Below are positions 22,586 to 42,750 of a stretch of DNA of 64,000 nucleotides, piece by piece. The position numbers and the translations under genes were made by a program. The stretch lies in the NCBI GenBank assembly GCA_963816145.1, contig CAWFJP010000030.1, forward strand, positions 128,001-192,000. The letters are read 5' to 3'. The notes under the pieces are model-generated. The model had not been told where the DNA came from and did not search any database. It saw only the letters and a list, made by a program, of their open reading frames with translations. Numbering within the stretch: the stretch's first letter is position 1; each line of letters opens with the position of its first letter. The stretch comes from an uncultured delta proteobacterium. GTDB taxonomy: Bacteria > Desulfobacterota > Binatia > UBA9968.

Positions 22586-22592
22586 GGCGTTT

Positions 22593-23894: not shown

Positions 23895-24068
23895 TGTTTT
23901 GTTGCCTGCGAGCACGTCGGCTTTCTCGCTCCATAGCCACGCTGATGGCTGCAGAATTGAGGGTTGAACAGGTTCTCAACTACGCGCCATTAGCGCGGTC
24001 GCGGGATTTCGAAAATTGCCGTGACCATCTGGAACCACCAATCCAACACAAAGTAATCCCTGACAGGC

Positions 24069-26131: not shown

Positions 26132-26179
26132 GTCCTTCTCCCGGAAGTTTCTCGTCTGCCAATGGGCGCGATCGAAACG

Positions 26180-26524
26180 TTATCGCGTGCCTTTTGGCTG
26201 CCACTTTTTGGCGGTTCTAAGACTGCGCTTCTTCAAATTGATCGGCGCATCCGCGTGCGTAGAGGTTGCGCGCCGAGCCAAGCCCGGGGTCACCGCAGCC
26301 GTTCGACGCTTGCTGCCCGCATTTTTTTTCGCACTACCTCTTGGTCCTTTACCGTAGCCGGAGCCACCTGGTTTATTGCCACCGCCATCGGTCTTGTTGA
26401 CGGTCGCCCAAGCGCGGCTCATGGCCTCACGTTCGCCAATCCCCTCGCGCTCGTAACCGAGCTCTATATGTCTGGCTTGGCGCTTTTGTTTGTCTGTGTA
26501 CTTTGCCTTACTACCGCTGGCCAT
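26180..26524 (-). CDS. small basic stress-associated protein (family often labelled plasmid stabilization protein; ChaB-like)
   Basis: YTDKQKRQARHIE.GY...G....EA..RAWATVNK..GGG signature, K/R-rich tail. Confidence 0.8.
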   Translation of the reverse strand: MASGSKAKYTDKQKRQARHIELGYEREGIGEREAMSRAWATVNKTDGGGNKPGGSGYGKGPRGSAKKNAGSKRRTAAVTPGLARRATSTHADAPINLKKRSLRTAKKWQPKGTR

Positions 26525-26649
26525 AACGCTATCCCCATATCGCTATTTGCTCGGTGTGATCTTCGCCGAACACTTCGTCGGGGCCGACGCGTATCCCTTG
26601 ACGGGGAAAATTTCCACCGGCCCTTGGTTCCATTTGTTGAATGTGACGC

Positions 26650-26664
26650 GCAAAAGGCGTGCCG
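26650..26664 (-). promoter_or_regulatory. sigma-54 promoter of the basic protein-phosphoesterase-nucleotidyltransferase operon
   Basis: minus strand CGGCACGCCTTTTGC; related motif GGAGTTTTCCTAC at 26752-26764. Confidence 0.75.
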
Positions 26665-27016
26665 GTCAATTAACTGGCAAATCACCTATAAACGAAGTGT
26701 TTTCCCGAGCTAATTCCGACATGCACGCGCATTTGTCGGAGATTCGCCTACGGAGTTTTCCTACGCGCAGATTCAATTCCGTGGGAATCTCGATATTTGT
26801 GTGGCAAGTTGAAAACAGCAAAGCAGCGCGATCACTGCACGAGGCAGCGTTCAGATAATATGTGTTGTCGCTTCCGGAAGCCTAATCGTGCGACGATGCC
26901 TACGTCCGAGGTCGGTGCACTCACGATGACTGTCAGATAGCCAAGACAAGGTAGAAAGGTATTACGGATCCAATCGCGGGTGTTCTTTGTAGACGCTTCG
27001 ACTGACCGTGGGGCAC

Positions 27017-28081
27017 CTAAATCTCGCTAAACATGCATGAACGCAATGCCTCGATCTTTCTTTTGTAACAGCCCGGGTCGAGAAACCGCAGCGTGGCAGC
27101 GATGCTACTCAACAATGAATTGCCGTCCTGCGGGGTGAAACACACGCCGACCACTTCACGGTCTCCCTTGAGCGCGAGACTTTGCCGGACAACGACCGTC
27201 TGGTTCAAAATTCGACCGAAGAGTCCATGATCGCGCCCGAAGGAAAATACTGAAGCCGAAGAGCTCTTATTGGTCAAAGCGATTCTCGGGTTGGCCTCGA
27301 TCCGCTGTATGACATTCTCTAACGTCGTCGGCCGGCGCAACACCAGATCGAAATGAATCATATGCATATACTGGGTGTTTAACTTCAGTGCCGAGGAAAA
27401 TATATTCAAGTCCAGACCGCGGGTTTTAAACAGATAATGGGCGTCTCGTGCCTGATGTGTGCCAAAACGGCGATCATCATGTTTTCCGGCTTCGGGTGCC
27501 GCGATGAACGCGCCATCCTCGCTCAGATCGTTGGCCCGGCGCATACAAACAAAACGTGCCTCTGCCAAATTGTCTTCCTGTGCCGGCCCCAATGCGATGG
27601 TGTCGATTACTGCGGCCAAGTTATGCGTATTGCAACTCACCACCTGTACGAACCGGTCGCAATCCCTATCGAGTATTGTGTCGTTGATCCCGTGTGCATA
27701 CATTTTACCGAAGCCAAATTCACTGCCTTGGGCAATAAAGCCGCAGCCGTTGGTAGCGTAACGATCATAATATTTCCGCTTGTTTTCATTACCCGCGGGT
27801 GTGCAATCGATCACCACCTTCGCGCGCCCGATCGCATCCTCCGCTTCATAGCAGGGCTCCATGCCGAGGTCGCTGAACGTTCCCCAACGCTCCTTGTCGA
27901 CGCACAGTTTTGCGCCGTGGCCGGCCAGCACTGCCACTTTTGACCGGTCGGTCACCAAGGGAGTTCGTTTATGAAAGGTGATTTCGTCGATACCGAACGG
28001 CTGGCGAAAGTTGGCCAACAGGCCAATCAGCGGCTCGCCGATGGTTCCAGTTCCGACCACGTGGACGATGTTTTTGTGCAT
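27017..28081 (-). CDS. archaeal-type (class II) glyceraldehyde-3-phosphate dehydrogenase homologue
   Basis: Rossmann motif VVGTGTIG, IDCTP, IAQGSE, catalytic VVSCNT, RRAND; AGGAG RBS. Confidence 0.75.
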   Translation of the reverse strand: MHKNIVHVVGTGTIGEPLIGLLANFRQPFGIDEITFHKRTPLVTDRSKVAVLAGHGAKLCVDKERWGTFSDLGMEPCYEAEDAIGRAKVVIDCTPAGNENKRKYYDRYATNGCGFIAQGSEFGFGKMYAHGINDTILDRDCDRFVQVVSCNTHNLAAVIDTIALGPAQEDNLAEARFVCMRRANDLSEDGAFIAAPEAGKHDDRRFGTHQARDAHYLFKTRGLDLNIFSSALKLNTQYMHMIHFDLVLRRPTTLENVIQRIEANPRIALTNKSSSASVFSFGRDHGLFGRILNQTVVVRQSLALKGDREVVGVCFTPQDGNSLLSSIAATLRFLDPGCYKRKIEALRSCMFSEI

Positions 28082-28200
28082 ACGTGCTCCTGTCTCCGCT
28101 TTGCGCGTGACTTGCAGTTTTACATTCAGTTGTTTAGTACGCGGGCGCGAACCATCCCATGAATCTACGGTATGGGATCTTAGGTTCGGTGTGACGGATG

Positions 28201-28216
28201 AGCAACCGTTATGCCA
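28201..28216 (-). promoter_or_regulatory. sigma-54 promoter of the GAPDH-like gene
   Basis: minus strand TGGCATAACGGTTGCT. Confidence 0.78.
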
Positions 28217-28313
28217 ACACCTCGCCGCTTGGTATTCACTCGCTTTGAAACTGTTTTGAGTATCAGCTCGCCGATAAGAGTCGTCAATTCATTAGTGGGT
28301 TTCATACAACCCA

Positions 28314-28330
28314 GGAAGAGTTTTTCCTGC
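28314..28330. promoter_or_regulatory. putative enhancer (UAS) for a sigma-54 activator
   Basis: GGAAGAGTTTTTCCTGC, near-identical to 24175-24191. Confidence 0.55.
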
Positions 28331-28413
28331 GATTTTTAACTCTGTTGAATCTCCGTGATATCTCGGTACTGCGCGGCATGTAACCCACGAACAGCAGAAC
28401 TCAACGTTGCAGA

Positions 28414-28956
28414 TCATAAGACCGTGATGCCTTCCTCCCGATAACGGCGATGCATTCGCTTGACAAATTCATGTTTGTACAAAAAGTTGTCACCCAGTCC
28501 CCGGCCGCTCAATGTCACCGCAAAATCAACCCCCGAAGGATTGAACGCAGAAAAACGGACGAAGGTATCGCGGTGCGAATCTCGTTTGCATAGGGTTTTA
28601 AACATTTCTCGCACGACGTGGCAGGTTACCTGCTCGACTGCTTCCAGGTCGTTGTTGCAGTGCACCCTCAGCTGAACCTAGACCATCGAGTCGTTAGAGT
28701 GGCTGTGAAAGTTGCTGATGTTACTCTGCACGAGTTTGCTGTTGGGCACATAGACCGTAACTTGGGGAAGTTCCCTGATCTGCGTATTGCGCCAGCCTAT
28801 ATGCTCTACATAGCCTTCTTCCCCCGTTGAAAGTCTCACGTATTGGCCGACCTGCAGCGGTTGGTCGGCTTTGATGTATAACCCGGCAAAGAGGTTGCCG
28901 AGCGTGTCCTGAAGCGCGATGACGATTGCCAAACTGCCGATGCCAAGTGTCGTCAC
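28414..28956 (-). pseudogene. MscS mechanosensitive channel remnant (N-terminus deleted, frame broken near 28680)
   Basis: LGIGSLAIVIALQDTLGNLFAG, GYVEHIGWRNTQIR, VPNSKL, then HEFVKRMHRRYREEGI in another ORF. Confidence 0.8.
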
Positions 28957-29129
28957 GCGCCTTTGGTTGCAGCGGAGAATTCGACGGTCTCCTGGCCCTT
29001 GTCGGTCTTCAGCAAAATTTGTTTTTTGCCCTGATCGACCCTCGCCACGGTACCTTCCAGGAGCGCCGCGTAAACGGAAATCGTGGGAACAAACAGCACG
29101 ACGGCCGCAAATGCTAATAGCTTCCTCAT
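28953..29129 (-). CDS. small secreted OB-fold-like protein, probably truncated at the deletion junction
   Basis: AAGGAGG RBS; MRKLLAFAAVVLFVPTISVYAALLEGTVARVDQGKKQILLKTDKGQETVEFSAATKGA (58 aa); not in the ORF track. Confidence 0.65.
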   Translation of the reverse strand: MRKLLAFAAVVLFVPTISVYAALLEGTVARVDQGKKQILLKTDKGQETVEFSAATKGA

Positions 29130-29206
29130 GGTTTATCACCTCCTTTCTCTGTATGTTGTTGAGCGCGCTTAGAAGAAATCGCCGTGTCGCCCAGTGCGGT
29201 ATTTGC

Positions 29207-29221
29207 GCAAGGCCTGTGCCA
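29207..29221 (-). promoter_or_regulatory. sigma-54 promoter
   Basis: minus strand TGGCACAGGCCTTGC. Confidence 0.8.
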
Positions 29222-29498
29222 GATGCCCAGGGTTATTAAATTGCTATAATTTTCATGTCCATTGACGACCGACATGAATGCTCAACGGCTTTTGTAAGGG
29301 TTTTTCCGCTGAAGGAAAGTAGATATTTCCTGCGCTTGATTACCGATAACCGTGATTCACATCGACACTCGACCGCGCCTACATTTCGATGGTTCGCGCG
29401 CGATCATCAATTGCACTCCGTGAAACGCCCATTAAAGAGGTTATTCCCCTTGGTGATTTCGGTTGACCGGGGTAAGCCGCGGCGATTAATAAAAGTCC

Positions 29499-30074
29499 TC
29501 ACAGGTTCGATGGATGGCGAACTGAACCGGCAACGTTGCTCCAGAAGGAAAAAGAGATCCAGGCGAATAGAAGGGAATAGTTTACGATGATGGCCACTTG
29601 TAAAGCGTTCAGCTCGCGGTTGGAAAAAGTACGCCCCAGTGACCAACTCGCAAGTGCGGTCTGCCCGAGCGCGACGAGCGCGAGCGCAATGCGCCGCCGT
29701 TTTGCCACGCGACGCCACTCGATCTGAACATCGGCACTCTCGGATAGTTCACTGCCGATTGGATCGGCGGAAAATGAGTGTGTTCCGGTGCGTTCTTTAC
29801 GGTTAGCCAATCTAGACCAGAGCCGGTGCCACAGGCCGAGTTCAATTTTGCTTGGCGCCATGGGAATACGGCGTGTTTCTGGCGTCGCAAACCGGCTCGG
29901 ACAGTCCTGCCAATAGTTACTAAAATGGTCGCAGTTTTGACTGACCCCGTTCTCATGCTTGGCGCGGTGCTGCGCCAGAATCTGGTGTCGTTGAGACGCT
30001 TGAACGGAGCCTCCCAGTCCGCCTTCGGCAGCTTGTTCCGATTGTCACACTGGTTGATATCTAGATTCGCTCAT
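29499..30074 (-). pseudogene. opgH: OpgH/MdoH glucosyltransferase N-terminal remnant
   Basis: WRRVAKRRRIALALVALGQT...LLFAWISFSFW; catalytic domain absent; ATG overlaps the opgG stop. Confidence 0.75.
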
Positions 30075-30863
30075 GACTCCAGTTGATAGCTCCAAGTTTC
30101 GCTGAGCGCGCGATCACCGGCCTGAAGAAAAGCGCGCAGCTCCAACGGCTTCCCCTTGGGCAGCCTTACCTGGAAACTCAAGCGCCAGCCCCCGTTCACC
30201 GGGTTTCGCAACAGATTTTGTTGCACCAGGGCTTGCGCAGAAATAACCGGGCGCGCACATTCACAGTGCTCCGCTCCCCCGGTTGGACAATGAATGAAAA
30301 GGCGCCGGCGACGCTGGCACTGTCGAGCAACGCGTAAAGCTTTACTACACGAGCTTCGCGCGACGGCCGCGCCAACCAGAACTCCTTGAAATATGGAAAT
30401 TCTTCCCCGGTCGGCAAGCCGGTATCGATCGCCAAACCGCGTGCAGAGAGACCGAACACTTGACCTTTGGCCACCGCGCGAAAATAACTAGCGTTGGCAA
30501 AAACAACCACATGATTAAATTCGCTGTTTTTAAAAAACGGATAAGCGATGCGAAAACCGGCAAAACCCAGATCGGCTAGAATCCGATCGGCGAATTTGTT
30601 CTTACCGTAAGTGAAAAGTTGCTGCGAGAAAGGCAACGCTCGGCTAGCACCGGCATCGATGAGATTGATTCTAACGGTTTGGCTAAAATATGGACCGGTG
30701 CCGGGCGCGAGGGGGGGGCGTCATAACGGCCTCAAGGGTTCGAAGCTGATCATTGTCAGGCGTTCTTCAACCCCAACTCGCGGGTTTGTAAGTGTCGCTG
30801 ATATAATCTTGCTAATGCCTCAAGGTTTTCACAAAGTTAAGCAACAGACTTCAGCACAGCCAT
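30071..30863 (-). pseudogene. opgG: OpgG/MdoG periplasmic glucan protein remnant with large internal deletions
   Basis: LGFAGFRI, SYFRAV..GQVFGLSARGLAIDT...GEEFP.F.EFWL joined almost directly to the C-terminal GWRLSFQ...LSETWSYQL. Confidence 0.85.
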
Positions 30864-31473
30864 GACCGTTTTTTCCCTTTTCTCTCAGTCTAAGTTATAC
30901 CCCGTTCAGACCGGCGGTGCGACAAGCGGTTTCCATGCTTTCGTAATGTCCTAATCGGCTGGCCGTCGGTATGAAACAACCGAACCGATCAACAGACGCG
31001 GTCAAGAACTATCGGCGTTTTCGTAATTACGAAAGGCTGCACATGAGTCTGGGGGTACCACACTCCGTCCTTGGTGTATTTAAACAAGTACGGCCACAGT
31101 CCAGCTATTAACTTTCATCTGAGGCGGAAGAAGCGATTCGAAAACTTATCGTCTAACCAGCATAGCGCAAAGATAAACATGCTGCTCTGTGCCAATCGAG
31201 GGCCAGCTGGGATTTACCCCAGACCGGGCTTTTTTCATGCCTCCATTACGCATTTCAAGGGCGCGATTGCCATGCTGTGAACTTTGCCGGCTCACTATAT
31301 TTCTCAATTTTCTTTCTGAAAACGTTCCCACAATAAAACTTGAAGGTTCAAAACGATTTGGAATCAGCAGCGATCGGAACAAGGGTGTGCCGTCGAAACA
31401 CTTTTTGCCATAGTTCTTAACTTGAAAAAGCGCATGAGCTATCAACCCGAAGGGAGGGTATGGCTAATAACCA

Positions 31474-32775
31474 CTAATTTTGCTGGGCGTCCTTTTTCAA
31501 GTGCGCAGCAAGCGCTGCCAATTTCTCGGCAGGCAAACCGTCGAGCAGCTTTGCCAAATCGTTTTTCTGCCCTTGCGCGGCAACGGTAACCGACGGCCGC
31601 CGCTGCGAGAGATCTTTAAGATACTGTTCCATTGGAAAAATCGAAAGTCCCAATACGTAGTCCGTTGCGGCCTTGCTTGAATCCTCCGAAAGCCGGTAAA
31701 ACTCTGCTTCGTCGTTTAGCAAGTTTCGCAGTGTGGCATCCCACGCGTCTACGTTTTGGTCGGGAATCACCGGTATAGGAAGCCGGTTTTCGTCTCGGCG
31801 TTTCTCATAAGTCTCAATCCGGTGCACAGGCAAGGAGTAATCTACCCCTAGTTTTGCTTCGATTAGTCCACCCACATTACTTGCGAGCACAGGAATTCCT
31901 CGGAGCATCGCCTCTACCACAACCAGACCGAAAGCCTCGCCCCATAAGGATGGCACAAGCAAAATTCGCGTCTGTTTGAAAATCTCATCGATATTTTCGC
32001 TAGGCTGCAGAAGTGTTACATTTGGTAACAATGCACAAGCAGACCGATCGGCGGCATTTGTCGCCCAAGTGGGTACAGCGGCAAACATTACCTCTCGGAA
32101 TCTTCGTGCAAGCTCTAAAAAAATAGGCAGACCTTTAATATTGGAGGGATTGATCATGGTTACGTAGAGATTATCCCATGACCCCAGCGGTGGAAAGGGT
32201 GGCAATCCATAGACCGGCACGCACGCGACAAAGGAATCTAAGCCGCCCCATTTCTCGATATAACTTTTCAGGTATTTGCTGCTGGTTAGAATACCTGCAA
32301 CATCTTCTAGCATTTGCTTTTTGAATCGGTCGACCGTAAAGGCTTCCGGCCCGAACGGTAAAGTCGCCTGACTCTGGGATAAAAATAACGTACGTCGCGG
32401 ATCGATTTCAGTAGCTGCAGCGAGCAGCATATAAGTAGGATCTTCGGAGATGATAATCCAAGTCGGATCAAACTCCTGTATCTGGGCTTTCAAGTGCTCA
32501 TGAAGCCGTGCTCCATTGGCTAAAGCGTAAACTTTTACTCCATTACGGAAAAACACCTGACGGGATGGCGAGAGTTCCAGGATACTCACAGCAGATCTAT
32601 CGTGTCGATTGAGACGTGCAAACGGTTTCAACTCTTCGGCGGGCGTCCCCACTAGAGCGATTGCTCTACATTCATGGCCTCTTTCCGCCAATCCCTCTAA
32701 TAAACACCGACCCACTCGGCTGGCACCATTCAATACTGGCAGGTAGGGTAATTTTTGCGCAAATAGTATTTTCAC
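31474..32775 (-). CDS. GT4-family (GT-B) glycosyltransferase with C-terminal docking-like helix
   Basis: L..GLAERGHE, NPSNIKG, LLVPSLWGEAFGLVVVEAMLRGIPVLASNVGGLIEA. Confidence 0.88.
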   Translation of the reverse strand: MKILFAQKLPYLPVLNGASRVGRCLLEGLAERGHECRAIALVGTPAEELKPFARLNRHDRSAVSILELSPSRQVFFRNGVKVYALANGARLHEHLKAQIQEFDPTWIIISEDPTYMLLAAATEIDPRRTLFLSQSQATLPFGPEAFTVDRFKKQMLEDVAGILTSSKYLKSYIEKWGGLDSFVACVPVYGLPPFPPLGSWDNLYVTMINPSNIKGLPIFLELARRFREVMFAAVPTWATNAADRSACALLPNVTLLQPSENIDEIFKQTRILLVPSLWGEAFGLVVVEAMLRGIPVLASNVGGLIEAKLGVDYSLPVHRIETYEKRRDENRLPIPVIPDQNVDAWDATLRNLLNDEAEFYRLSEDSSKAATDYVLGLSIFPMEQYLKDLSQRRPSVTVAAQGQKNDLAKLLDGLPAEKLAALAAHLKKDAQQN

Positions 32776-32813
32776 TTCGGCCCTGATGAAATGTTCGACG
32801 TTACCACGCTTCT

Positions 32814-35015
32814 CTATTTTTTGCCGCTTATGCTGGTAAGGTCTTTTAATTCGTCCATCGACAAGGCATCCAGCTTATCCAAAATGGCGCCGATTTCCGC
32901 AGGATCAGATTGTCGGAACTGCTCCATAAGTATTGCCTTCGACAGAACCGCCACCGTAAATTCCTGAGTCACGAGCAACCGCGGTGAGAGTTCGACGTCA
33001 AAACTTGCTCGTATACGAGACAACACCTGCATCGCCAAGAGAGAATGCCCTCCCAAGTCAAAAAAATTGTCGTTTATGCCGATTTCCTCAAAACCGAGAA
33101 GCTCGGACCAGATGTTGGCAATTTCTTTTTCGACCGGGGAAGTGGGCGCGACGAATGGCACTGTGAGCTCAGGGCGCGCTCCGCCAAAAGATGAGACGGC
33201 CTCATGGATCGTATTCGGATCATTCAATGTCATGGCGATATGGATCAAGACGTCGTCCCCACCCTGGGGCCTGAATCGCGATCTCGAATCTTGTGGGATC
33301 ACCGGCGCTGATGAAACCCCGTCTGACCCTTCATCGTTTTGGCGTGTCACTTTATCCGGATCCATTTTATAATCGGCCGCCATACTGGCGGTAACTTGAT
33401 ATCGCCAACCACCCTCGCAGACTTCTTTTTTTGCGCTTACTAGGGACTCAAGAAAGTTAGCGGCCGGTTTGTTTTTGGACGTCGGCATGAACCGAAGCTC
33501 CACAGAATCCGCGTCCTTTTCTATGGCTATCGTTCCTAACCTTGCCAACATTTGGTGTTCGACTCCGCGCCCCATCGCGCGGCAGCTGAGCAAGAATGTA
33601 TCTACAATTACCGAGCGTGACAAAACCTGATAAATAATCACGCCGACGAGGCCATAGTCACCAAATCGATCACCAACGTGGACAATCAGAATTTCCTTGC
33701 CTTCCTGCTGCAAGTGTTGCAATTCTGATTCAGACCGCCGAATGGTAGAAACGTTAAATTGGTTCGTCCGGTAAGTGAGGTCGGCGACTCTTGCCAACGA
33801 ATGAGCAGTGGCGGGCGAAATGTCGATTTGTAGTTGGAGCTCTGCGAGAAATTCCCCGAAAGTGAGTGATCGTTGTCGGACCGAGTCGCGCTGAAAATGT
33901 TCTCGATAGAGTTCCGTTCGACGCTTATCTTCAGTGGTTACTTTGCCATGATCAAAAACCCACAGATGATCGAGAAACTGCGGGGTACATTCCGGATCCG
34001 GCGGCAGCTGAATCGCCAAAACGTCAGCGCAGTTCGCTCTTACCTCGCCGCATTCAACCGGGTCATCGTCGATAAGAATAAAGGCATCGAGTCCCAGATT
34101 CAATTCCTTTGCCAACGATCTTAGATTTTCGGACTTAGGCCTCCAGTTGATCCGCGAAGCAAGGAAATGATCCCGCTGCACGAGCATTCCAGGATGGGCG
34201 TCAAATACTGCCTGGACATCTTCCTCATTATTCTTGCTGCAAAGACAGAGAACTATGCCCGCGTCGTGCTGCCGTAGGACGAATTCCTGTAGAGCTTTCC
34301 TCGTCGAATCAATTTGGACGGCCGTCGGCCCATCTTCTCCGCACGCCCCGCCCCATAGAGTATTGTCACAATCGAGGGCGATGACTTTGTGAGGAAGCTT
34401 TTTCAATGCGTAAATCTTCCGCGCGATCATAGTGGCTAGAGCCGTAAAGTACACTGGTGTGTAAGGCACGTGAGCGAGCTTGTCCGTATAATCGTCGCGA
34501 CAGTCTGGAACGGGATAAAGCTTTGCCATATCTTCGTGATGCAGGACGTGTACACCGGCGATCTCTCCAGCCTCCGAGACCAGGTAGTGTTCCATCTTAG
34601 TGATGAAAGCATTTGCCTCCGAATCGGCAGCGCGATGCTGGGATGGAGGGCATAAACACACAAGAAATGTCGTGGGCACTTTCCCTACGGCAGCCCGGAG
34701 ACACTGAAGAAAATCACCGACGTTTCGCTCTATCTCCGATTCAAACGAACCCGGCGCGTCGGTCGCGGGTGCGCCCCCCCAGTCTTCAAGCCGAACCAGA
34801 GTGACGTCTATATCGTTATTGCTGCTAGATAACGAGCCAGGGTAGGTCAGGAGATGTTGGAACAGCTGCCCATACGGCGCAAACTGAATCCGGACAGGTT
34901 GACGTAATTCTTCCATCCAGAAGCGCAGCGGCACTTCGACCGAATCAGCGGTAAACGATGCCGCAATAGTAAGTGAAATTTGTTCGTCGGTCGAACCCAA
35001 AGCGTTTGCGTCCAT
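32814..35015 (-). CDS. FkbH-like glyceryl transferase/phosphatase fused to a phosphopantetheinyl carrier domain
   Basis: HAD motif LDCDNTLWGG, CSKNN, IDDDPVE, RTNQFN, DRFGDYGLVG, FLLSCRAMGR; carrier motif NFFDLGGHSLLA. Confidence 0.92.
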   Translation of the reverse strand: MDANALGSTDEQISLTIAASFTADSVEVPLRFWMEELRQPVRIQFAPYGQLFQHLLTYPGSLSSSNNDIDVTLVRLEDWGGAPATDAPGSFESEIERNVGDFLQCLRAAVGKVPTTFLVCLCPPSQHRAADSEANAFITKMEHYLVSEAGEIAGVHVLHHEDMAKLYPVPDCRDDYTDKLAHVPYTPVYFTALATMIARKIYALKKLPHKVIALDCDNTLWGGACGEDGPTAVQIDSTRKALQEFVLRQHDAGIVLCLCSKNNEEDVQAVFDAHPGMLVQRDHFLASRINWRPKSENLRSLAKELNLGLDAFILIDDDPVECGEVRANCADVLAIQLPPDPECTPQFLDHLWVFDHGKVTTEDKRRTELYREHFQRDSVRQRSLTFGEFLAELQLQIDISPATAHSLARVADLTYRTNQFNVSTIRRSESELQHLQQEGKEILIVHVGDRFGDYGLVGVIIYQVLSRSVIVDTFLLSCRAMGRGVEHQMLARLGTIAIEKDADSVELRFMPTSKNKPAANFLESLVSAKKEVCEGGWRYQVTASMAADYKMDPDKVTRQNDEGSDGVSSAPVIPQDSRSRFRPQGGDDVLIHIAMTLNDPNTIHEAVSSFGGARPELTVPFVAPTSPVEKEIANIWSELLGFEEIGINDNFFDLGGHSLLAMQVLSRIRASFDVELSPRLLVTQEFTVAVLSKAILMEQFRQSDPAEIGAILDKLDALSMDELKDLTSISGKK

Positions 35016-35052
35016 TACCTAATACCTCAAATCCGTTTTCGCAAATCTACAA

Positions 35053-35802
35053 TTAGTCTTTGCGTCTGTTCGGTATCTCGTTGAGCCGCTTGGCTAATAT
35101 GTCCATCAGGCGTTTATAGGAAAGAGGCGGCGCCAAAAAGGAAAAGTCCCGGCTACCGATAGATTCAAACCGAGGCTGCTCGCTAGCGATAGCCGTTTTC
35201 TCAAATTCCGATTTCCATACTTCAGCAAGTTCGGGAAAGCCCAATTTCTGTGCGATATTGCATAAGATGTTTTCGCCCGAATTAAAATAGCCAGCTTGGT
35301 CGCGTTTCTTCACGCCGCAGAAGAGAATGCCCAGATCCAAATAATCTTCCAGTTCGTTCGCCAGACGAATTAAAACAACGTCTCTCTCAAACTGGCTCAG
35401 AGAATCCAACTGAACGCAGATGCTCTGTGCAACCTGCTGGTTCCACCTTAACTCGTTGTACCTTGCGACATACTCTTCCACTTCCGGGCCTACGGCGGCT
35501 CTTACATAGTCTTGTTTTGCAGACGAGAGACCTTGTTTGTTGTCGCCAAAATCACCGCTATCGTACGCGGCATGAAGGAGTCCGGCGGCTATTATGCGTG
35601 GCGCTGAACGAACACTCGTCAGGATACTCGCCGTGCCAACCAAGTGGGCAATGAAGGTTTTCCCGGACCCTCTGAAGCGTCCGGTGAAAAGGGTCATTGC
35701 GAGCTCGTAAGACTTTTTGACAGCAGCTATTTCCTGTTCATCGTACCCGAGGTCATACATCTGATTGAACAGCTGAATATTCGTTTGTGCAAAGCGATAC
35801 AA
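35053..35802 (-). CDS. HD-superfamily (RelA/SpoT/Mesh1 hydrolase-like, DUF6817-type) protein with substituted metal ligands
   Basis: AQTNIQLFNQ, RGSGKTFIAHLVGTASIL, AAGLLHAAY, IRLANELED; likely TTG start at 35802 after AAGGGA. Confidence 0.7.
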   Translation of the reverse strand: MYRFAQTNIQLFNQMYDLGYDEQEIAAVKKSYELAMTLFTGRFRGSGKTFIAHLVGTASILTSVRSAPRIIAAGLLHAAYDSGDFGDNKQGLSSAKQDYVRAAVGPEVEEYVARYNELRWNQQVAQSICVQLDSLSQFERDVVLIRLANELEDYLDLGILFCGVKKRDQAGYFNSGENILCNIAQKLGFPELAEVWKSEFEKTAIASEQPRFESIGSRDFSFLAPPLSYKRLMDILAKRLNEIPNRRKD

Positions 35803-35813
35803 TTTGTTTCCCT

Positions 35814-37298
35814 TCAAAGTGTATGTGCCGATGTTAAATACGGGACGACTCCACTGCGTTCCAACTGAGGCACACTGACGACCTTGCCGGTCACGGCCTC
35901 GACCAGTTTCACCGGCGTACTGCCAAGATTCACGTCGCATAAATCACCGGCGACATAGGCGCTTCCTGCCAAAGGTGCAGAAATCGCGGTTGGCGCCGGT
36001 TGTACCACCTTCCGCAGCGCCGCTGCACTGCGCCAGTTTCCGGTATCGACTGCCAGCCAACATTGATATTGCTGCGGCGATGGCTCAAGAGTCAGGAACG
36101 CGAACGGTCTTATTTTGCGCAGCGGCTCGGCTTCTCTGGTTTCTACACAAACCAGGGTTGGATCGTTGGCTCGGCCTCGCGAGAGAGGGCGGATAACAAC
36201 GCCGGATCGACCCTCACTGGCTTGACGTAGGAGCTGAGGAAGTTTTCCAAAGGTTTCCTGTGCGTCCAAATTCGGCCAAGCCTCGATGGTATCGCTTTTG
36301 TTCTTGACGATGCTGAGATCGAAGCGGTCTCGATCGACCGATAAGAACATCGCCACCATGAGCTCGGCTTGCTCACGAGGCAGCTCGGGTTGATAGCCTG
36401 GCTTGCCATTGGGTACCGTTAGCCCTGTCAGAAACCGACGATGACCGCGGGCAAATTTGATGATCGTTTCCTCGCTCTCGGGCACCGCCTTTTCACTAAA
36501 CCAACGCAACGCGGACACACCCCATTTTGCATTGAAGTGGCGCACCGTTGCTAAGTTCCAGGCCTCGCTCCAACGCAACATAAAGTAGGGAACATCGAAC
36601 CATTCATAAGGAGGCGGTGGCACATAACTAGTAACTGCGCGCGGCTCAATATAAACCGATCCTCCTGCCTCACGCACAGCCATGCCAATGTCGATATGTT
36701 CATGCAGGCTTAAAAGTTTTTCGTCCAGCGGACCGAGACGTTGAAGAATCTCAGTACGTATAAGCATGCAATGGAATTCTGCATAATCCCAAGCGCGTCG
36801 CTGCAGACGATCCTGAACTTGGTCGAGCTTCGTTTCGAAAAGATATTGTTCGTCATACAGAATTCGCTTGCCTTCATGTTCCTTGACGTGCAGAGTGCCG
36901 CCAGCCATGTGAATGGTCTGTTTTTCCAGCTCTCCAATGAGGTAGAGAGGTCCGACGATCCAGGCATCGGTGTCGTTTGCACATCGGACAAGAGCCGCCA
37001 ACCAGCCGGGCCTCACCAGCGCGTCATTATCGATGAATACCGTGTATTTGGTCTTCACTTCGCGCCAGCCAAGGTTGCGAGCTTGGTTGGGAGACAGATA
37101 TCGATCCAGCGAAATTACCCGGAAGCCTTTTCGCTGCGATTCCTCCTTAAGGAATGTTCGCAAGGGCCCCGGGCTGCCTGCGTCGATGTATATTAAGTCG
37201 AACGGAAAGTCTGTGTTTTCATAAATATTGATCAAAGATTGTTGGGCGAAGCTAAATCGTTCGCGAGGAACCACCACGATGGTGACCTGGGATTCCAT
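35814..37298 (-). CDS. GT2-family glycosyltransferase fused to a degenerate RepB DNA-primase-like domain
   Basis: GT-A motifs VTIVVVPRE, NQARNLG, VFIDND, EHID; C-terminal VVIRP...FLTLEPSPQQYQCWL...LAGS. Confidence 0.8.
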   Translation of the reverse strand: MESQVTIVVVPRERFSFAQQSLINIYENTDFPFDLIYIDAGSPGPLRTFLKEESQRKGFRVISLDRYLSPNQARNLGWREVKTKYTVFIDNDALVRPGWLAALVRCANDTDAWIVGPLYLIGELEKQTIHMAGGTLHVKEHEGKRILYDEQYLFETKLDQVQDRLQRRAWDYAEFHCMLIRTEILQRLGPLDEKLLSLHEHIDIGMAVREAGGSVYIEPRAVTSYVPPPPYEWFDVPYFMLRWSEAWNLATVRHFNAKWGVSALRWFSEKAVPESEETIIKFARGHRRFLTGLTVPNGKPGYQPELPREQAELMVAMFLSVDRDRFDLSIVKNKSDTIEAWPNLDAQETFGKLPQLLRQASEGRSGVVIRPLSRGRANDPTLVCVETREAEPLRKIRPFAFLTLEPSPQQYQCWLAVDTGNWRSAAALRKVVQPAPTAISAPLAGSAYVAGDLCDVNLGSTPVKLVEAVTGKVVSVPQLERSGVVPYLTSAHTL

Positions 37299-38823
37299 GT
37301 TGAAGACTCCTACTGATCTAAACGAGAAATACCGCCGAGGTTACTTTGACAATTTTCCATGACGACAGTTCCGTCTCGCCAAAACGAACATAGGATTGTG
37401 GTGTTGTACGCTGATTTAGTACACGATTTGACACATGCCATTTTTATGCTTTTTAGATCCGTGAGCAAGGAGAAAGAGCTTCGAATAAAGTACATCACCC
37501 CGATGTAAGACTGCAAACTACGTTGACTCTAAAGTGCTAGGTGAGAAAGGACTACGGCTCACTGCTCAAAGCGAGCGTTAACTCTAGGAATCTAGGTCCG
37601 TAACGCAGAATTACATGGAAATGGAGGACGATTCATGGCGTACTCGTAGGGATAAATCTTAGCGCCGAATCATACGGAGAACGGCCTGAACAGCCAATCG
37701 GAACGCCTTAGAGAGTGAATAGAAGCAAGTTGCCGGACTTTTGTCCGCGTAATAATGACAAGCCCCAAAAACTACCGATGAAAGCGTCACTCAGGGCTTG
37801 GTTTCGTTGGGCTTGAGGGTCGCGCTTAAGTTCTAAGACGATTCACCCACGATCGATTTTAGAATGGCCTTCAAGAGGTCCTCTAGTTTCCACTCCGTGC
37901 TGCCAGTTTGCCGCAACTTTACCGAAACTAATTGCTGGTATGTGTTTTCGAACGGAAATTGAGTGAGCGTGATGTAACTGTAGGCGCTTGAATTCCTTGA
38001 GTTGACTACCATAGGTTGCACACAGCCCGGCTACCACTCCGGAACTGAAAATCCTCATGTCGCTGATCGATCATGCGCAATGGCGATTGTGTCTTTTATG
38101 TTTCCAGTGTGATTCCAGATGAAGTTAACGGAACCAGAGAAACGGTTCCATCCTCATGCTTATTTACCTCGTTTTTGTCGGTTTTTTCTAGTCGAGTTAT
38201 GTTCTGGAGTTGGCTAGTGTTTTTCGTAATCAGTGGATCGCCGGTTCACCTTCGGCGCATCGCTCCAGATTTTATCGATGATTTGGAATCCCGTCCGATG
38301 AGATGATTTGGCTTTGCGGGCGCATTGTCCGTGTTCAGCCCGCTTTCGCGCACTCAGCGGACCGATCGGGACGAAGACTTCAACTGCAAAAGACTTGCAG
38401 GATATTCTGAACAGGTTACGCGGGACGCCTTACAACTTTCGAAAGCACAACGGAAGCGTTCGCAAGTCCAGCGGCCAACGCAAGATATCCGAGCTCGGCA
38501 TATCCTCCCGACACCGACCGACTGGAGTGATTGCATACGAATTAGCGAGCTCTTGGGAGTGAGACACCATGCTATCAGCGAGCCGAGGGGGAATAGGCTT
38601 AGCGAGGCAAGTATTTTATTCTGGCCGGAGCAAGCGAGCATGGTGAATCGAGACTAGCCCCTTCCCCCCTTTGTCAACAACGGATGCGCACATTGCGCGA
38701 TGTCGGGTTTTTGACAGTTAGTTTGTTGAAAACACCGAAAGCATGTACAAACTGGATAAACGTGAATGCAGTAAAATTGCAGAGTTAGAACCATCGTGAT
38801 TGATGCTTAAAGGGTAACGCAGA

Positions 38824-38868
38824 ACTCTCCCGTCGGGAACACGGGGTCGAGTCCCGTTCGGACCATCA
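38824..38868 (+). other. 3' half of a tRNA-Glu-like gene (degenerate), candidate attachment site
   Basis: CTCTC...GGGAAC ACGGG-GTCGAGT-CCCGT TCGGACCA: T-arm hairpin plus 3' acceptor strand; no complementary 5' acceptor strand upstream. Confidence 0.6.
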
Positions 38869-38998
38869 AGTTTGCTTCCCTTGCCTAAAACGATGCAACA
38901 GCGGCCACACGATCGCGCATCTCAGCTCGGGGCTGTTCCGATGAAGCGCCGGTTGCGCGAATGCAATCTCGACGAAGCGCGGCAAGAAGAAGAACTTC

Positions 38999-40228
38999 AT
39001 GCTTCTAAACACTACCTTCCGCGCCTTTCGCCACCGCGACTACTTGATCTACTGGCTCGGTCTATTTCTTGGCCATACCGGCACATTGGTGCAGACCACC
39101 GCGCAGACCTGGCTGATCTTTCAACTGACCCATTCGCCATTTTATCTAGGCCTAGAGGGACTCTGCCTGGGTTTACCGCGGGTGCTGTTTTCCGCCTTCG
39201 GCGGCGCCGTGGTCGATCGCACGGACCTAAAAACCATTTTTGTCCTGACCCAAATTTCTTTCGTCGCGATGGCGCTGTTTCTCGGCGTGATGCGTCATCT
39301 CGGGCTCATTCAGGTATGGCATCTCCTGCTGGTCTCCGCCCTCACCGGCTTTCTGGTTTCGTTCGAGCAACCGGTGCGCCAGTCGATCCTACATCATCTT
39401 GTGCCACGCGAAGATCTGCCCAACGCCGTCACGCTCTATCAAATGGTTTTCAATGGCTCGATGCTGTTCGGACCTTCGATCGGAGGTTTGCTGATTCCAG
39501 TGATCGATACCAAGGGCTGTTTCTTCCTAGCCACCATCGGCAATCTGCTCGTGTTAGTCACGATATTTCTCATCCGCATACCCGCCACGGAACCGTCGGC
39601 GGCCAAAACCAGTATTACGCGCGACATGATCGAAGGTCTTAAGCTCGCGTGGAAAACCCCGATGTTTCTGGCGCTTCTAACAGTCCTCGCCGTCGTCAGC
39701 TTTTGCACCAAACCCTATACTCAGTTCATGCCGGTGTTCGCGCAGACAATTCTCAACGTCGGCGCCCCCGGTCTCGGCATGTTGCTCATGGCGCCGGGCG
39801 CCGGCGCGATCTTGGGCGGGCTGACCCTCGCCTCGGTGCGCCGTTTTCCTAAACCGCCGCGTTTGCTGTTTGGCCTAGCTGCCGGATTCGGCATCTGCAT
39901 CGTTCTATTCGCCACCTCGCGCAGCTTTCTCTTGTCGCTGGTATTCTTGTTCTTCGCCGGTAGCTTTCAGACCACATTCCTATCGTCGGTCGCCACGCTG
40001 CTACAATTCCACACCAACGAGCACAACCGCGGTCGTATCATGTCGATGTTTGGTCTGATCAATCGCGGCCTCGGCCCAATGGGCAGCTTTCCCTTCGGAC
40101 TGATCGCGACCTGGATTGGCGCCCCTTGGACTGTGGCGATCTGCGGCGCGCTCACCATCAGCCTGGTCGGCTATGTGGTTAATTACCGTGCAAGTTTACG
40201 TGACGCCAAAGCGGTCGGTGAGAATTAA
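38999..40228 (+). CDS. MFS transporter
   Basis: about 12 TM; GGAVVDRTD, FEQPVRQS, RGRIMS. Confidence 0.9.
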   Translation: MLLNTTFRAFRHRDYLIYWLGLFLGHTGTLVQTTAQTWLIFQLTHSPFYLGLEGLCLGLPRVLFSAFGGAVVDRTDLKTIFVLTQISFVAMALFLGVMRHLGLIQVWHLLLVSALTGFLVSFEQPVRQSILHHLVPREDLPNAVTLYQMVFNGSMLFGPSIGGLLIPVIDTKGCFFLATIGNLLVLVTIFLIRIPATEPSAAKTSITRDMIEGLKLAWKTPMFLALLTVLAVVSFCTKPYTQFMPVFAQTILNVGAPGLGMLLMAPGAGAILGGLTLASVRRFPKPPRLLFGLAAGFGICIVLFATSRSFLLSLVFLFFAGSFQTTFLSSVATLLQFHTNEHNRGRIMSMFGLINRGLGPMGSFPFGLIATWIGAPWTVAICGALTISLVGYVVNYRASLRDAKAVGEN

Positions 40229-40469
40229 CTATTGCTGGGAATCATCCCAAGCGATAGCCATCCATGCCGAAACAGCAAATCTGCCAGGGCGAACGAATGT
40301 TATGCTTCAGCGATAGCCAAAGGATCTCGACTTTGTACGCAGCAGAAAAGACGATTTTGTTCGTTGACGATCAAAATGACACTTTGGCAAGTTTCGCGAC
40401 TGCCGCACGGACTCAAAGCAAGGCGAGTCTCTCTTAAAACTACTGATTTAGAGTGGCACCGAAGTCGGC

Positions 40470-41021
40470 CTAAATTTTTCCCTGTGACCTCAGGTGTTCG
40501 ATGCGCTGGCGCACGATCTCACCGAGATCATTTGTCTCCAGCGCATCCGGGACTTGAATTCCTTCGGCGCCCAACTGGGTGAGCTTCTGATTGAGCGCGT
40601 CGAGGCTCGCGCGGATGCGCGCATGCTCTTGCAGATATTGCCGGCATGCGAGGATGTTGTCGTCGACCTCTTCGATGCACTTGCTCAAACGACGGCTTTC
40701 CTGGCTGAAAGTTTGGCGCAGATGATCGACGTTAGCTTGGATAATCTGCTCCTCGACGGGGCGGATCTGCTTGGCGATCTCGCTCTTCATGTCTTGCAAG
40801 GCTTGGAGCAAGCGTTCGTATGATTGTTCTTCCCTCATGAGATCCTCCGGCATCTGGATTTTGACTTCTCTCGTCGCGATGTAGTGCTGCGCCAGTGATT
40901 CCGACACCCGCCGTTTAACCAACACCAACGCCGCCTGGGTTTCATGAATGCGCTCGTCCACCAGGGCTTCGTCGCCGATGAGTTTAACCAACTGTTCCAA
41001 GGGTGCGGTGGCAAGTGTCAT
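40470..41021 (-). CDS. coiled-coil hypothetical protein
   Basis: long helical E/Q/L-rich ORF; start 41021 (alternative 41075). Confidence 0.7.
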   Translation of the reverse strand: MTLATAPLEQLVKLIGDEALVDERIHETQAALVLVKRRVSESLAQHYIATREVKIQMPEDLMREEQSYERLLQALQDMKSEIAKQIRPVEEQIIQANVDHLRQTFSQESRRLSKCIEEVDDNILACRQYLQEHARIRASLDALNQKLTQLGAEGIQVPDALETNDLGEIVRQRIEHLRSQGKI

Positions 41022-41259
41022 GGTTCGATTGGGTTTAACGGACAGTGTTACAGTCCGCCCCAGCTCAAGAGCCATGTATTATCCAGTCGCAGGTGAAACT
41101 GCAAGCATCACCAAATCTAAGGTAAGAATACGAAATACTTGATATTTTAAGAGGTAAAAATCAAAGATAAAGTCGACCTTAACGCACCATCTCGGGTCTC
41201 GTTGGCGCGCATTGACAACGAATGTAAGACGGTCTGGTGCGAGCGCTGGCGCGGCTCGA

Positions 41260-41595
41260 TTAACGTTTGTTTTCAGTAAGCTGGCGCTTCCAGCCGAGGG
41301 TACGCGCCTTCGCGCCGACTTCTTCGGCTTCGGCGATCAGACCCTTCTGTTGATAGAAGATTGACAGGCTCGTATAAGCCAGTTCATCGTCCGGCGCCGC
41401 CGCGATCAAACGTTTCGCGATGTCGATGGCTTGATCAAGTTTTTCTTGGTGCGAATAAGTCATCGCCAGGGCATGCAAAGCGTCGGCGTAATTGGGATCT
41501 TCATCGAGGGCGCGCAAATAAGCGGCAACGGCATCGTCCAAGTGATCCTGGGCGAAATACTCCATCCCCTGATTGTAAAAATCTTCTTTGTTCAC
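41260..41595 (-). CDS. tetratricopeptide repeat protein
   Basis: A...Y..AL..DPNYADALHALA, AYTSLS TPR pattern. Confidence 0.85.
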   Translation of the reverse strand: MNKEDFYNQGMEYFAQDHLDDAVAAYLRALDEDPNYADALHALAMTYSHQEKLDQAIDIAKRLIAAAPDDELAYTSLSIFYQQKGLIAEAEEVGAKARTLGWKRQLTENKR

Positions 41596-41628
41596 TGGGG
41601 CAGTTAGTTGGGCGATTTTGCGCCGAAA

Positions 41629-42750
41629 TTATGAAGCTGCCATGGACAGCCGTTGGACCTGTTCAGGTCGGCATTGCTGCAGCAAGACTTTTTTGAGCAT
41701 CGTCGGATTGACCGGCTTTTTGAAGATGACACCCTGCAAGCCTCCGAGGCAGCTGCGCTTGATGATGTGGTCTTTGTCGTAATTGAATGCCGTCATCAAG
41801 ACGACCGGCAGTCCGGGCATGTTTTTCTTGACGGTTTGGTACAGCTCGTAACCGTCCATGTCGGGCATGACGACATCGCTCAACACGACATCGAAGCGGT
41901 GCCGCCTCAACCACTCCATGGCATGGACTCCGGAGGCCGCGGTCTCGATGCAGCAGCGCTCCGACTCCAAGAGCTGCTTGAGCGACTGGCAGATGCTGGC
42001 GTCATCGTCGACGACCAAAATGTTCAAGCCGCTTAATGGATAACACGCGTCGGGCGACGGCCGGGCACAAGGTTTGTCGCTGGCTGCGGCATCGACATGG
42101 AGATCCGTCATCATCTTGCCGTCGAGGTACTCGGTCGTGCCGTACTCGCCCTCTTCGGCCATTTTGGCCATGCGCGTGGTGATATCTTGTATTTTGCGCA
42201 CCTGAGACGCCACGGAGTCGAGCCGGTCCGACTCGACAATGTAGTCTTCGTCGGTGGCGACGCGCTCGACATACTTCTTCATCAGTTCGGTCTGATTGAC
42301 CAGGACTTCCAAACTATTATTGATCTCGTGGGAAAGCCCGATGGCGATCTCGGCGAGCGTCACCAGTCGGTCGCGCCGGCGGATCTCGCGAATATCCTTA
42401 GCAAAACCAATCGAGCCGATCTCCTGACCCTGATCGTCGTAGATGATCGACGCAGAAATTGCCACTGGCATCTGCTCGCCTCGCTTGGTCTTGAATATGG
42501 TTTCGAAGTTTCTCACCCGCCCCCTGCCTTCGCCATCGCTCGCACGCATCGCCGCCATCACTCGGCGCGCTTCTTCGAGATTGGGATAGATCTCCAGGAC
42601 GTTTTTGCCTAAAACCTCGTCGAACGAAAAGCCGAGATTCTGCCGCGCACCGTCATTGTAGAAAGTAATCGTACCGTGACGATCGACCGAAATAATAATG
42701 TCGGGACAGCTCTCGACGAGCTTCTGAAAGTATTGAACCGGCAGGGCCAT
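41629..42750 (-). CDS. PAS-HisKA-REC signalling protein lacking a HATPase domain
   Basis: PAS/PAC, H-box LSHEINNSL, short EYLDGKMMTDL tail, REC with VVDDD/SDVVMP/KKP. Confidence 0.85.
   Translation of the reverse strand: MALPVQYFQKLVESCPDIIISVDRHGTITFYNDGARQNLGFSFDEVLGKNVLEIYPNLEEARRVMAAMRASDGEGRGRVRNFETIFKTKRGEQMPVAISASIIYDDQGQEIGSIGFAKDIREIRRRDRLVTLAEIAIGLSHEINNSLEVLVNQTELMKKYVERVATDEDYIVESDRLDSVASQVRKIQDITTRMAKMAEEGEYGTTEYLDGKMMTDLHVDAAASDKPCARPSPDACYPLSGLNILVVDDDASICQSLKQLLESERCCIETAASGVHAMEWLRRHRFDVVLSDVVMPDMDGYELYQTVKKNMPGLPVVLMTAFNYDKDHIIKRSCLGGLQGVIFKKPVNPTMLKKVLLQQCRPEQVQRLSMAAS

Follow-up and report, generated by a model that had tools for sequence, protein, structure and literature searches.

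The closest described relative of the domain treated here is the RepB' primase of the IncQ plasmid RSF1010 (PDB entries 3H20 and 3H25; Pfam family PF16793; PrimPol-PV1 group of the archaeo-eukaryotic primases, AEPs). In PMC8567376, the RepB' residues D77, D78 and D134 are described as required for nucleotidyl transfer and R145 as needed for normal activity, Trp50 is tied to the handling of hairpin DNA, and both the formation and the extension of the first dinucleotide depend on a helix-bundle domain that is separate from the catalytic one. RepB'-like enzymes carry a glutamine in place of the motif-II histidine and have the motif-IV arginine, according to PMC5862659, and the passages considered from these two papers place AEP primase domains only in replication, repair and mobile-element contexts. 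The stretch analysed here (the window; 64,000 nucleotides of contig CAWFJP010000030.1 from an uncultured delta proteobacterium) contains on its minus strand the open reading frame (ORF) 35814–37298, which encodes 494 amino acids plus a stop in a single uninterrupted frame; all the sequence strings that an earlier note had quoted from it are present in this one translation. Its product is a family 2 glycosyltransferase (GT2) fused to a RepB'-type domain that is catalytically degenerate, and the fused gene lies in a biosynthetic cassette upstream of a gene for an FkbH-acyl carrier protein (FkbH-ACP).

When residues 310–494 were scanned alone, no Pfam or NCBIfam model was matched, and the C-terminal part of the window protein alone gave a single match against the PDB, chain 3H25 of RSF1010 RepB', at E=1. 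A word-indexed search with residues 300–494 returned 35 proteins at E ≤ 0.001, whose precomputed domains include GT2 in 31 and RepB_primase (PF16793) in 4; the 4 relatives without a GT2 domain are truncated fragments. Among the 33 of these 35 homologues that were aligned (P0003 and P0004 were omitted as near-copies of P0002) and scanned singly, PF16793 was matched by 6 (E limit 0.1; best E 2e-7). A profile from 14 C-terminal domains (alignment A2), which are 23–44% identical to the window domain, reached the RepB' chains 3H25 (E 4.5e-7) and 3H20 (E 9.6e-7) in the PDB, the next match being at E 0.32. The AlphaFold model of the isolated domain (pLDDT 88.0, pTM 0.84) gave three Foldseek matches at E ≤ 0.001, namely 3H25 (best, E 1.1e-6), 3H20 and the AEP domain of the cyanophage S-2L PrimPol. 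In a VIA-align comparison of the same model with 48,161 representative chains, RepB' was again best (3H20; Z 13.8, root-mean-square deviation 4.0, 162 residues aligned, 20% identity), followed by the other RepB' chain (Z 13.3) and the S-2L PrimPol AEP domain (Z 9.7); the next row was a 78-residue match to a RuBisCO-activase domain (Z 7.2), with other AEPs at Z 5–6.5. Searched against 1.84 billion representatives, the A2 profile matched 658 proteins at E ≤ 0.001 and 318 at E ≤ 1e-10, and ten of the A2-profile proteins were scanned, PF16793 being found in 8 (5 of them also with RepB_primase_C) and the remaining 2 being GT2 proteins. By language-model features, RepB_primase clusters made up 22 of the 30 neighbours of residues 296–494 (top score 0.95). 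Taken together, the C-terminal domain is a homologue of the RSF1010 RepB' catalytic domain, belonging by descent to the RepB' family of AEPs. This bears out the RepB primase pattern pointed out in the earlier note, which had the domain beginning at window position 36371; that position is indeed the first base of codon 310 (Q310), but the domain starts slightly earlier, at about residue 296 (window 36413).

Free-standing domains of the fused type, seen as profile matches of 169–258 amino acids, were considered and set aside as truncated gene calls, since they start at internal methionines of the fusion (MTGL..., MLRWSE..., MIALFQS...). The 749-residue protein P0183 has two GT2 stretches followed by a partial primase-like match (profile positions 4–154 at residues 548–700), and is possibly a second kind of GT–AEP fusion.

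The window domain shares with RepB' the xRFDL strand, the V-x-IRP block, the motif-I strand, the LE-x-x-P-x-x-YQ-x-W block with the motif-II glutamine, and the LAG block. Unlike RepB', it has Glu386/Thr387 in place of Asp77/Asp78 and Pro442 in place of Arg145, and both an equivalent of Asp134 and the helix-bundle domain (PriCT-1 / RepB_primase_C) are absent. To place these differences, 41 fused-type and 92 canonical RepB-type domains were aligned to the A2 profile. The D77 column holds Asp in 92/92 canonical domains, against D in 24/41 and E in 13/41 of the fused ones (E386 in the window); the D78 column holds Asp in 89/92, against D in 15/41 and T in 12/41 (T387); and the R145 column of motif IV holds Arg in 89/92, against R in 7/41, H in 12/41 and P in 11/41 (P442). 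The motif-III Asp, at the place of D134, is present in 74/77 canonical and 16/40 fused segments, and there is no Asp in the window segment upstream of LAG, where motif III should lie. No match to PF22448, the RepB_primase_C helix bundle, was found in the window protein, which stops at residue 494, right after the domain. The motif-II glutamine (Q106 column) is kept in both groups (90/92 canonical, 38/41 fused) and is the only one of these motif residues still present in the window copy (Q412). Two other polar residues of the old active-site region, Tyr411 (39/41) and Glu405 (35/41), are also retained in the fused forms, as are the IRP arginine (29/41) and the glycine of the motif-IV AG (40/41). 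The retention of Gln412, Tyr411 and Glu405 may point to a surviving ligand pocket.

Judged from the alignment, the fused family as a whole appears to have lost motif III and the helix bundle, with 16/40 fused segments still bearing the Asp, and the window sub-clade has additionally lost both motif-I aspartates and the motif-IV arginine. Read against the 92 canonical domains, the replacements listed in the earlier note are correct: DD has become ET, the T, G and N of ETSPGN have become P, Q and Q, and the Arg before LAGS has become Pro. We infer from these residues that the window domain cannot prime. Four functional hallmarks of the RepB' family are missing from it, and a primase annotation would therefore be wrong.

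The closest relatives outside the fusion clade are canonical RepB-type primases, both chromosomal and plasmid-borne (P0045, P0053, P0055, P0057 and P0063; E 2.6e-48 to 1e-15). They carry PF16793, like those fused homologues that reach this model, but keep the DD pair, a GAD-type motif III and the Arg and usually have a C-terminal helical domain, unlike the window domain; no glycosyltransferase is attached to any of the canonical proteins that were scanned. Five of the canonical primases closest to the fused domain (P0045, P0053, P0055, P0066 and P0089; 572–663 amino acids) have about 300 N-terminal residues without a Pfam match before RepB_primase and RepB_primase_C, an unannotated module.

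The kinship with plasmid RepB proposed in the earlier note was also recovered, as canonical relatives from the profile lead to RepB primases of small mobilizable plasmids: P0063 (a more distant canonical member, profile E 2e-24) matches RepB-domain primase / MobA genes on 32 plasmid records at about 30% identity, and 31 of these 32 records are predicted to be mobilizable. The family is therefore that of plasmid RepB. A tblastn search of 72,556 plasmids gave no match for the window domain or for its closest canonical relative P0045, and hence no direct plasmid donor.

We have also checked whether the fused domain is maintained. The ratio of nonsynonymous to synonymous substitution rates (dN/dS; Nei-Gojobori, all 10 pairs of 5 sequences, comprising the window copy and 4 close metagenomic relatives 79–93% identical to it) is 0.12–0.25 for residues 296–494 and 0.03–0.14 for residues 1–295, and neither a stop nor a frameshift occurs across the 33 aligned homologues. 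Fused genes are present in Acidobacteriota, Chloroflexota, Pseudomonadota and metagenome-assembled genomes labelled delta-proteobacterial. The fused domain is therefore kept under purifying selection in several phyla and is not debris; an inactivated primase fold that has been reused, as the earlier note had supposed, is what the degenerate catalytic residues and this selection describe. The fusion that the note wished to see searched for elsewhere is neither unique nor decaying. None of these conclusions depends on the unpublished genome G005. One copy departs from this pattern: at L029 7995-9495 (identical to L018; relative G019:C46) the fused gene is split into ORFs of 374 and 132 amino acids and the adjoining GT4 gene is also split (172 + 282 amino acids), which may be either a decaying copy or assembly frameshifts.

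In the tree of the GT2 part (285 columns, IQ-TREE quick, LG+G4; unrooted), which omitted the split gene L029 and the near-duplicate or truncated metagenome loci L099, L101, L104, L108, L110, L111 and L113, one branch splits the 22 fused forms from 67 short forms that have no such domain (SH-aLRT 99). In the unrooted tree of the primase domains (138 rows, P0002–P0004 dropped), one branch likewise separates 38 fused domains and 7 fragments from 93 canonical ones, with a support of 97.8. From these two trees, a single capture of the primase-like domain would be the simplest reading. The window's genome has three GT2-primase-like copies, the other two being 49% and 47% identical to the window copy (Table 1). 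The copy on C5 is preceded by a ketopantoate-reductase-like gene; besides its own FkbH-ACP gene, genes for a GT28/EryCIII-like glycosyltransferase, for NMT1-like binding proteins and for a DUF5924 protein follow it.

The glycosyltransferase part matches Pfam Glycos_transf_2 (PF00535, residues 18–185; 48.6 bits against a cut-off of 23.3), and its closest NCBIfam model is MftF, at 57 bits, below the cut-off of 280. The DxD motif is present as D90-N91-D92, within a DNDALV block that is conserved across the homologue alignment. The AlphaFold model of the full-length protein (pLDDT 88.8, pTM 0.88) shows the GT-A fold, with at least 500 Foldseek matches at E ≤ 0.001 (best E 2.7e-13), and among the matches listed every one is a polypeptide GalNAc-transferase. 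The pTM of 0.88 suggests that the two domains are packed rigidly in a fixed arrangement. The polypeptide GalNAc-transferases (family GT27) match over the GT-A part at E ~1e-13 with 12–17% identity, and membership in GT27 is not claimed. In both kinds of enzyme the GT-A catalytic domain comes first and a domain without catalytic function occupies the C-terminal end; in GT27, however, the latter is a ricin-type lectin rather than an AEP fold, and these are eukaryotic Golgi enzymes acting on proteins. The lectin domain of polypeptide GalNAc-transferases helps choose the acceptor, and by analogy the GT2-AEP architecture may parallel it.

The 67 short forms are sister GT2s of about 330–365 amino acids, from cyanobacteria and some Acidobacteriota, that are 45–57% identical to the fused GT2 over residues ~1–270, share with it the motifs DExLLSxHEH and FMLRWSE, and likewise adjoin GT4 and GT28-like glycosyltransferases. 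Unlike the fused forms, they have no primase-like domain and no FkbH-ACP: in the 67 loci (ORFs of at least 80 amino acids, most with 8 kb on each side), FkbH was matched in 0/67 and the primase-like domain in 0/67. Their company is instead an ABC exporter, a histidine phosphatase, an epimerase, a UDP-glucose dehydrogenase and an OprB porin. These sister loci (L032–L098, e.g. L053 7989-9062 of Chlorogloeopsis fritschii PCC 6912; ~340 amino acids; 62/67 cyanobacterial) form a conserved gene cluster in which GT4 is found in 56, a GT28-like enzyme in 46, an MsbA-type ABC exporter in 43, histidine phosphatase in 36, epimerase in 28 and OprB porin in 23; to our knowledge no product has been described for it.

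In the window, the fused gene opens a cassette encoded entirely on the minus strand, in the order GT2-AEP-like (37298-35814), HD protein, FkbH-ACP and GT4, with the coordinates collected in Table 1. It thus differs from RepB' also in its setting, standing behind a glycosyltransferase in a chromosomal biosynthetic cassette and not in a plasmid replication module. The FkbH-ACP protein is matched by TIGR01686 at E 2.1e-88 (296.6 bits against a cut-off of 146.65), and its HAD DxD (D215, D217), Cys478 and the GGHS serine Ser658 are invariant in 13 partners. We examined 30 fused loci (16 from genomes and 14 from metagenome contigs, not all independent). In 28 of them the strand of the fused gene also carries an FkbH gene downstream, 5 of these 28 being cut by the contig end; in the two loci without FkbH, merely 31 and 1672 bases remain after the gene. 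The fused gene and the FkbH-ACP gene are at most 30 bases apart, stop to start, or overlap in 14 of the loci listed. Other neighbours are a GT4 or GT28/EryCIII-like glycosyltransferase and, in several loci, pieces of nonribosomal peptide synthetase (NRPS; A-T, C-A-T-TE and C-T-TE), a phosphopantetheinyl transferase and alpha/beta hydrolases. No replication, repair or DNA/RNA-modification gene adjoins the fused loci examined.

Table 1. Positions of the fused gene, its motifs, the cassette genes and the two paralogues (window coordinates unless a genome and contig are named)
Feature	Position	Strand	Basis or remark
Whole ORF, GT2 glycosyltransferase fused to RepB'-like (AEP) domain	35814..37298	-	ORF, Pfam, full-length model
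GT2 (GT-A fold) catalytic region, residues 1-295	36414..37298	-	Pfam, alignment, Foldseek
D90-N91-D92 motif within FIDNDA	37020-37037	-	translation
Family-specific block HEHID in GT2	36690-36704	-	alignment
Family-specific block PYFMLRWSE in GT2	36564-36590	-	alignment
Catalytically degenerate RepB'-type AEP primase-like domain, residues 296-494 (199 aa)	35817..36413	-	profile, structure, language model
Glu386-Thr387, columns of RepB' catalytic Asp77-Asp78 (motif I)	36138..36143	-	alignment to canonical domains
Y411-Q412-C413-W414, motif II, RepB'-type Gln kept	36057..36068	-	alignment
A441-P442-L443-A444-G445-S446; Pro442 at the place of RepB' Arg145 (motif IV)	35961..35978	-	alignment
HD-domain protein (Pfam DUF6817 / HD_4)	35053..35802	-	ORF, Pfam, homologue starts
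FkbH-ACP, 733 aa: FkbH domain 209-526, phosphopantetheine-binding domain 631-690	32814..35015	-	TIGR01686, Pfam
GT4-type (Glycos_transf_1) glycosyltransferase, last gene of the cassette	31474..32775	-	Pfam
Second paralogue, 49% identical	G000:C5:140627-141913 (L011 8565-10097)		own FkbH-ACP gene follows
Third paralogue, 47% identical	G000:C14:269261-270709 (L012 8253-9761)		own FkbH-ACP gene follows

FkbH/OzmB chemistry consists of glyceryl-ACP formation, and the known systems of this type feed methoxymalonyl-ACP, tetronate or glycerate starter units into polyketide and NRPS pathways. The partner gene found here likewise has the FkbH domain, the HAD DxD, the conserved Cys and the ACP, and several fused loci come with NRPS modules as those systems do, whereas the window cassette has no polyketide synthase (PKS) or NRPS gene. 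We know of no FkbH system paired with a GT2 that bears a primase-like domain.

As the best explanation, to which we give a probability of roughly 45%, we propose that the domain assists the GT2 as a non-catalytic accessory module, serving acceptor or carrier-protein recognition, and that it was gained with a change of acceptor supply. We infer its function from the conserved gene order; a change of acceptor supply is proposed because the fused enzymes, unlike the domain-less sister GT2s, sit upstream of an FkbH-ACP gene. The more specific form of this proposal, in which the domain would be a docking module for carrier proteins, of a new kind, through which an acceptor tethered to the ACP can be glycosylated, is at best equally tentative, though much likelier than the nucleic-acid variant discussed below. 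By homology, FkbH-ACP would convert a glycolytic phosphoglycerate into glyceryl-S-ACP, making carrier-bound glycerate, whose hydroxyls the GT2 (with its DxD intact) and the adjoining GT4 or GT28-like enzyme would glycosylate while the glycerate is still carrier-bound or as soon as it has been released. The dead primase domain, which seems to sit rigidly against the GT2, would help recognise or position the carrier protein or the glyceryl-phosphopantetheine arm, and loci with C-A-T-TE or A-T modules would condense the glycosyl-glyceryl unit with an amino acid. For the glycosylation of an intermediate bound to an ACP, PtmJ of pactamycin biosynthesis is a precedent. The C-terminal 33 residues of FkbH-ACP (window 32814-32912) form a conserved acidic tail after the ACP (median isoelectric point, pI, 4.1; near-invariant Asp720), which is common to the FkbH-ACP partners of fused GT2s, resembles a docking peptide and may be where the GT2 or the extra domain makes contact.

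Several points weigh against a recognition role. Most fused domains (median pI 5.5; window 7.9–8.2) share the acidic character of the ACP domains (median 4.5), without obvious bulk charge complementarity, and any contact of the domain with FkbH-ACP or a ligand is putative. Linkage and fusion are one evolutionary event, and the 28/30 versus 0/67 is one phylogenetic observation, not 97. Among longer proteins, none of 1832 candidates scored as a fusion of the domain with FkbH or with any other domain, which is weak evidence. The window cassette has no thioesterase or condensation domain, leaving the release of a product from the carrier unexplained, and the conserved Gln412, Tyr411 and Glu405 may mark a surviving pocket that would fit a small-molecule role too. 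When the primase-like domain (A2) was modelled together with the entire FkbH-ACP (A3), the predicted complex scored 0.00 in two runs without controls, which weighs neither way.

The same observations can be read as a purely structural role, in which the dead domain stabilises, caps or oligomerises the GT2 and the coincidence with FkbH-ACP is an accident of one ancestral operon. The single origin of fusion and linkage and the high pTM of the two-domain model would fit this, and the segment conserved most specifically in the fused forms (EQAELMVAMFLSVDRDRFDL), which comprises the first helix and strand behind the linker, could be no more than the surface that meets the GT2. However, the sister GT2s work without such a domain in 67 loci, the polar residues of the former active site are conserved, and the FkbH-ACP linkage has outlasted transfer among at least 4 phylum-level groups and is kept by three paralogues in one genome; we regard a structural role as unlikely. 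Those retained polar residues are also the starting point for a second reading, in which the vestigial pocket binds a nucleotide-like or phosphorylated small molecule (e.g. an NDP-sugar, NTP, phosphoglycerate or alarmone) and gives the GT2 either a second site for substrate or allosteric control. The retained motif-II YQxW, IRP arginine and motif-IV AG would fit such a pocket, and the HD protein encoded next in the window has a weak similarity to RelA/SpoT hydrolase. The HD gene, which is found in 14/31 clustered fused loci, also stands beside short GT2s without the domain (L032, L034, L037 and L076), and it therefore goes with the GT2 and not with the primase-like domain; since the metal-binding aspartates and the nucleotide-positioning Arg are gone in the window clade as well, such a pocket seems quite improbable.

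The earlier note had gone further and hinted that the inactive fold binds single-stranded DNA or RNA and aims the glycosyltransferase at nucleic acid. Although the RepB' parent domain binds hairpin single-stranded DNA (PMC8567376), its fold is well preserved here and the window copy is near neutral to slightly basic (pI 7.9–8.2), this step found no support: in the loci examined no neighbour related to nucleic acids was found, the conserved partners being the thiotemplate and sugar enzymes (FkbH-ACP, glycosyltransferases and NRPS) together with the HD hydrolase; the fused domains are mostly acidic, with a median pI of 5.5 in 41 of them as compared with 8.85 in the 92 canonical domains; the place of RepB' Trp50 aligns with a non-aromatic position; and the helix-bundle domain is absent. 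We give nucleic-acid targeting very little credence. A variant of it, in which the dead domain still holds a nucleotide or short nucleic acid and the GT2/HD/FkbH-ACP/GT4 cassette builds a glycosyl-glyceryl group on it or attaches one to it, is given slightly less still; if true, this would be a thiotemplate-fed modification of nucleotides or nucleic acids without known precedent. As for chance read-through into decaying plasmid debris, or a still-active primase-polymerase, nothing but the homology itself speaks for either. Debris is contradicted by the dN/dS values, by the GT2 in 31/35 relatives (the other 4 being fragments) and by the single clade spread across several phyla, and an active primase by the Glu/Thr at D77/D78, the absent motif-III Asp, the Pro at R145 and the missing helix bundle; both are hardly credible.

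In the titles and abstract openings that literature searches returned, no glycosyltransferase–AEP fusion and no such GT2/FkbH-ACP pairing is described. Precomputed Pfam annotations of database proteins do show the GT2-AEP architecture, so that it can be detected although it has not been described. What we find is a RepB'-type domain without the catalytic residues, joined to a sugar transferase and selected across several phyla in a carrier-protein-based biosynthetic cassette, and it seems that an old replication fold has been reused for a job outside DNA replication. If the domain is indeed a recognition module for an acceptor or carrier protein, glycosyltransferases would gain an accessory domain of a new type, and metabolism would offer a clear example of exaptation of a replication fold. 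The conserved GT2-AEP / FkbH-ACP pair would then be the signature of a family of glycosylated, glycerate-derived products in soil bacteria that has yet to be characterised.

Some details of the cassette and its surroundings remain to be mentioned. The longest ORF of the HD gene would begin at 35940 and overlap the GT2 ORF by 127 bases; this start was rejected, as the homologues begin at the equivalent of TTG 35802. The HD gene thus probably starts at TTG 35802, 12 bases past the GT2 stop, and the overlap is probably not real. An Rfam scan of window 26000–42000 found no family, and promoter and terminator scans of window 31000–39200 gave nothing above shuffles. Upstream of the cassette, the 1.7 kb at 37299–38998 contain short ORFs (62–110 amino acids) only, and a divergent MFS_3-type transporter gene begins at 38999. 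Downstream, two fragment-like ORFs on the minus strand match larger families over internal parts only, namely an MdoG profile (30196–30636; 146 amino acids, profile positions 85–219 of 478) and the MscS beta-domain (28678–29139; 153 amino acids). Further along, at 18647–23915 of the same strand, lies a glycogen-type run of an alpha-amylase family protein, a CBM48 / alpha-amylase branching-type enzyme and a GlgC-like nucleotidyltransferase, with no evident link to the cassette.

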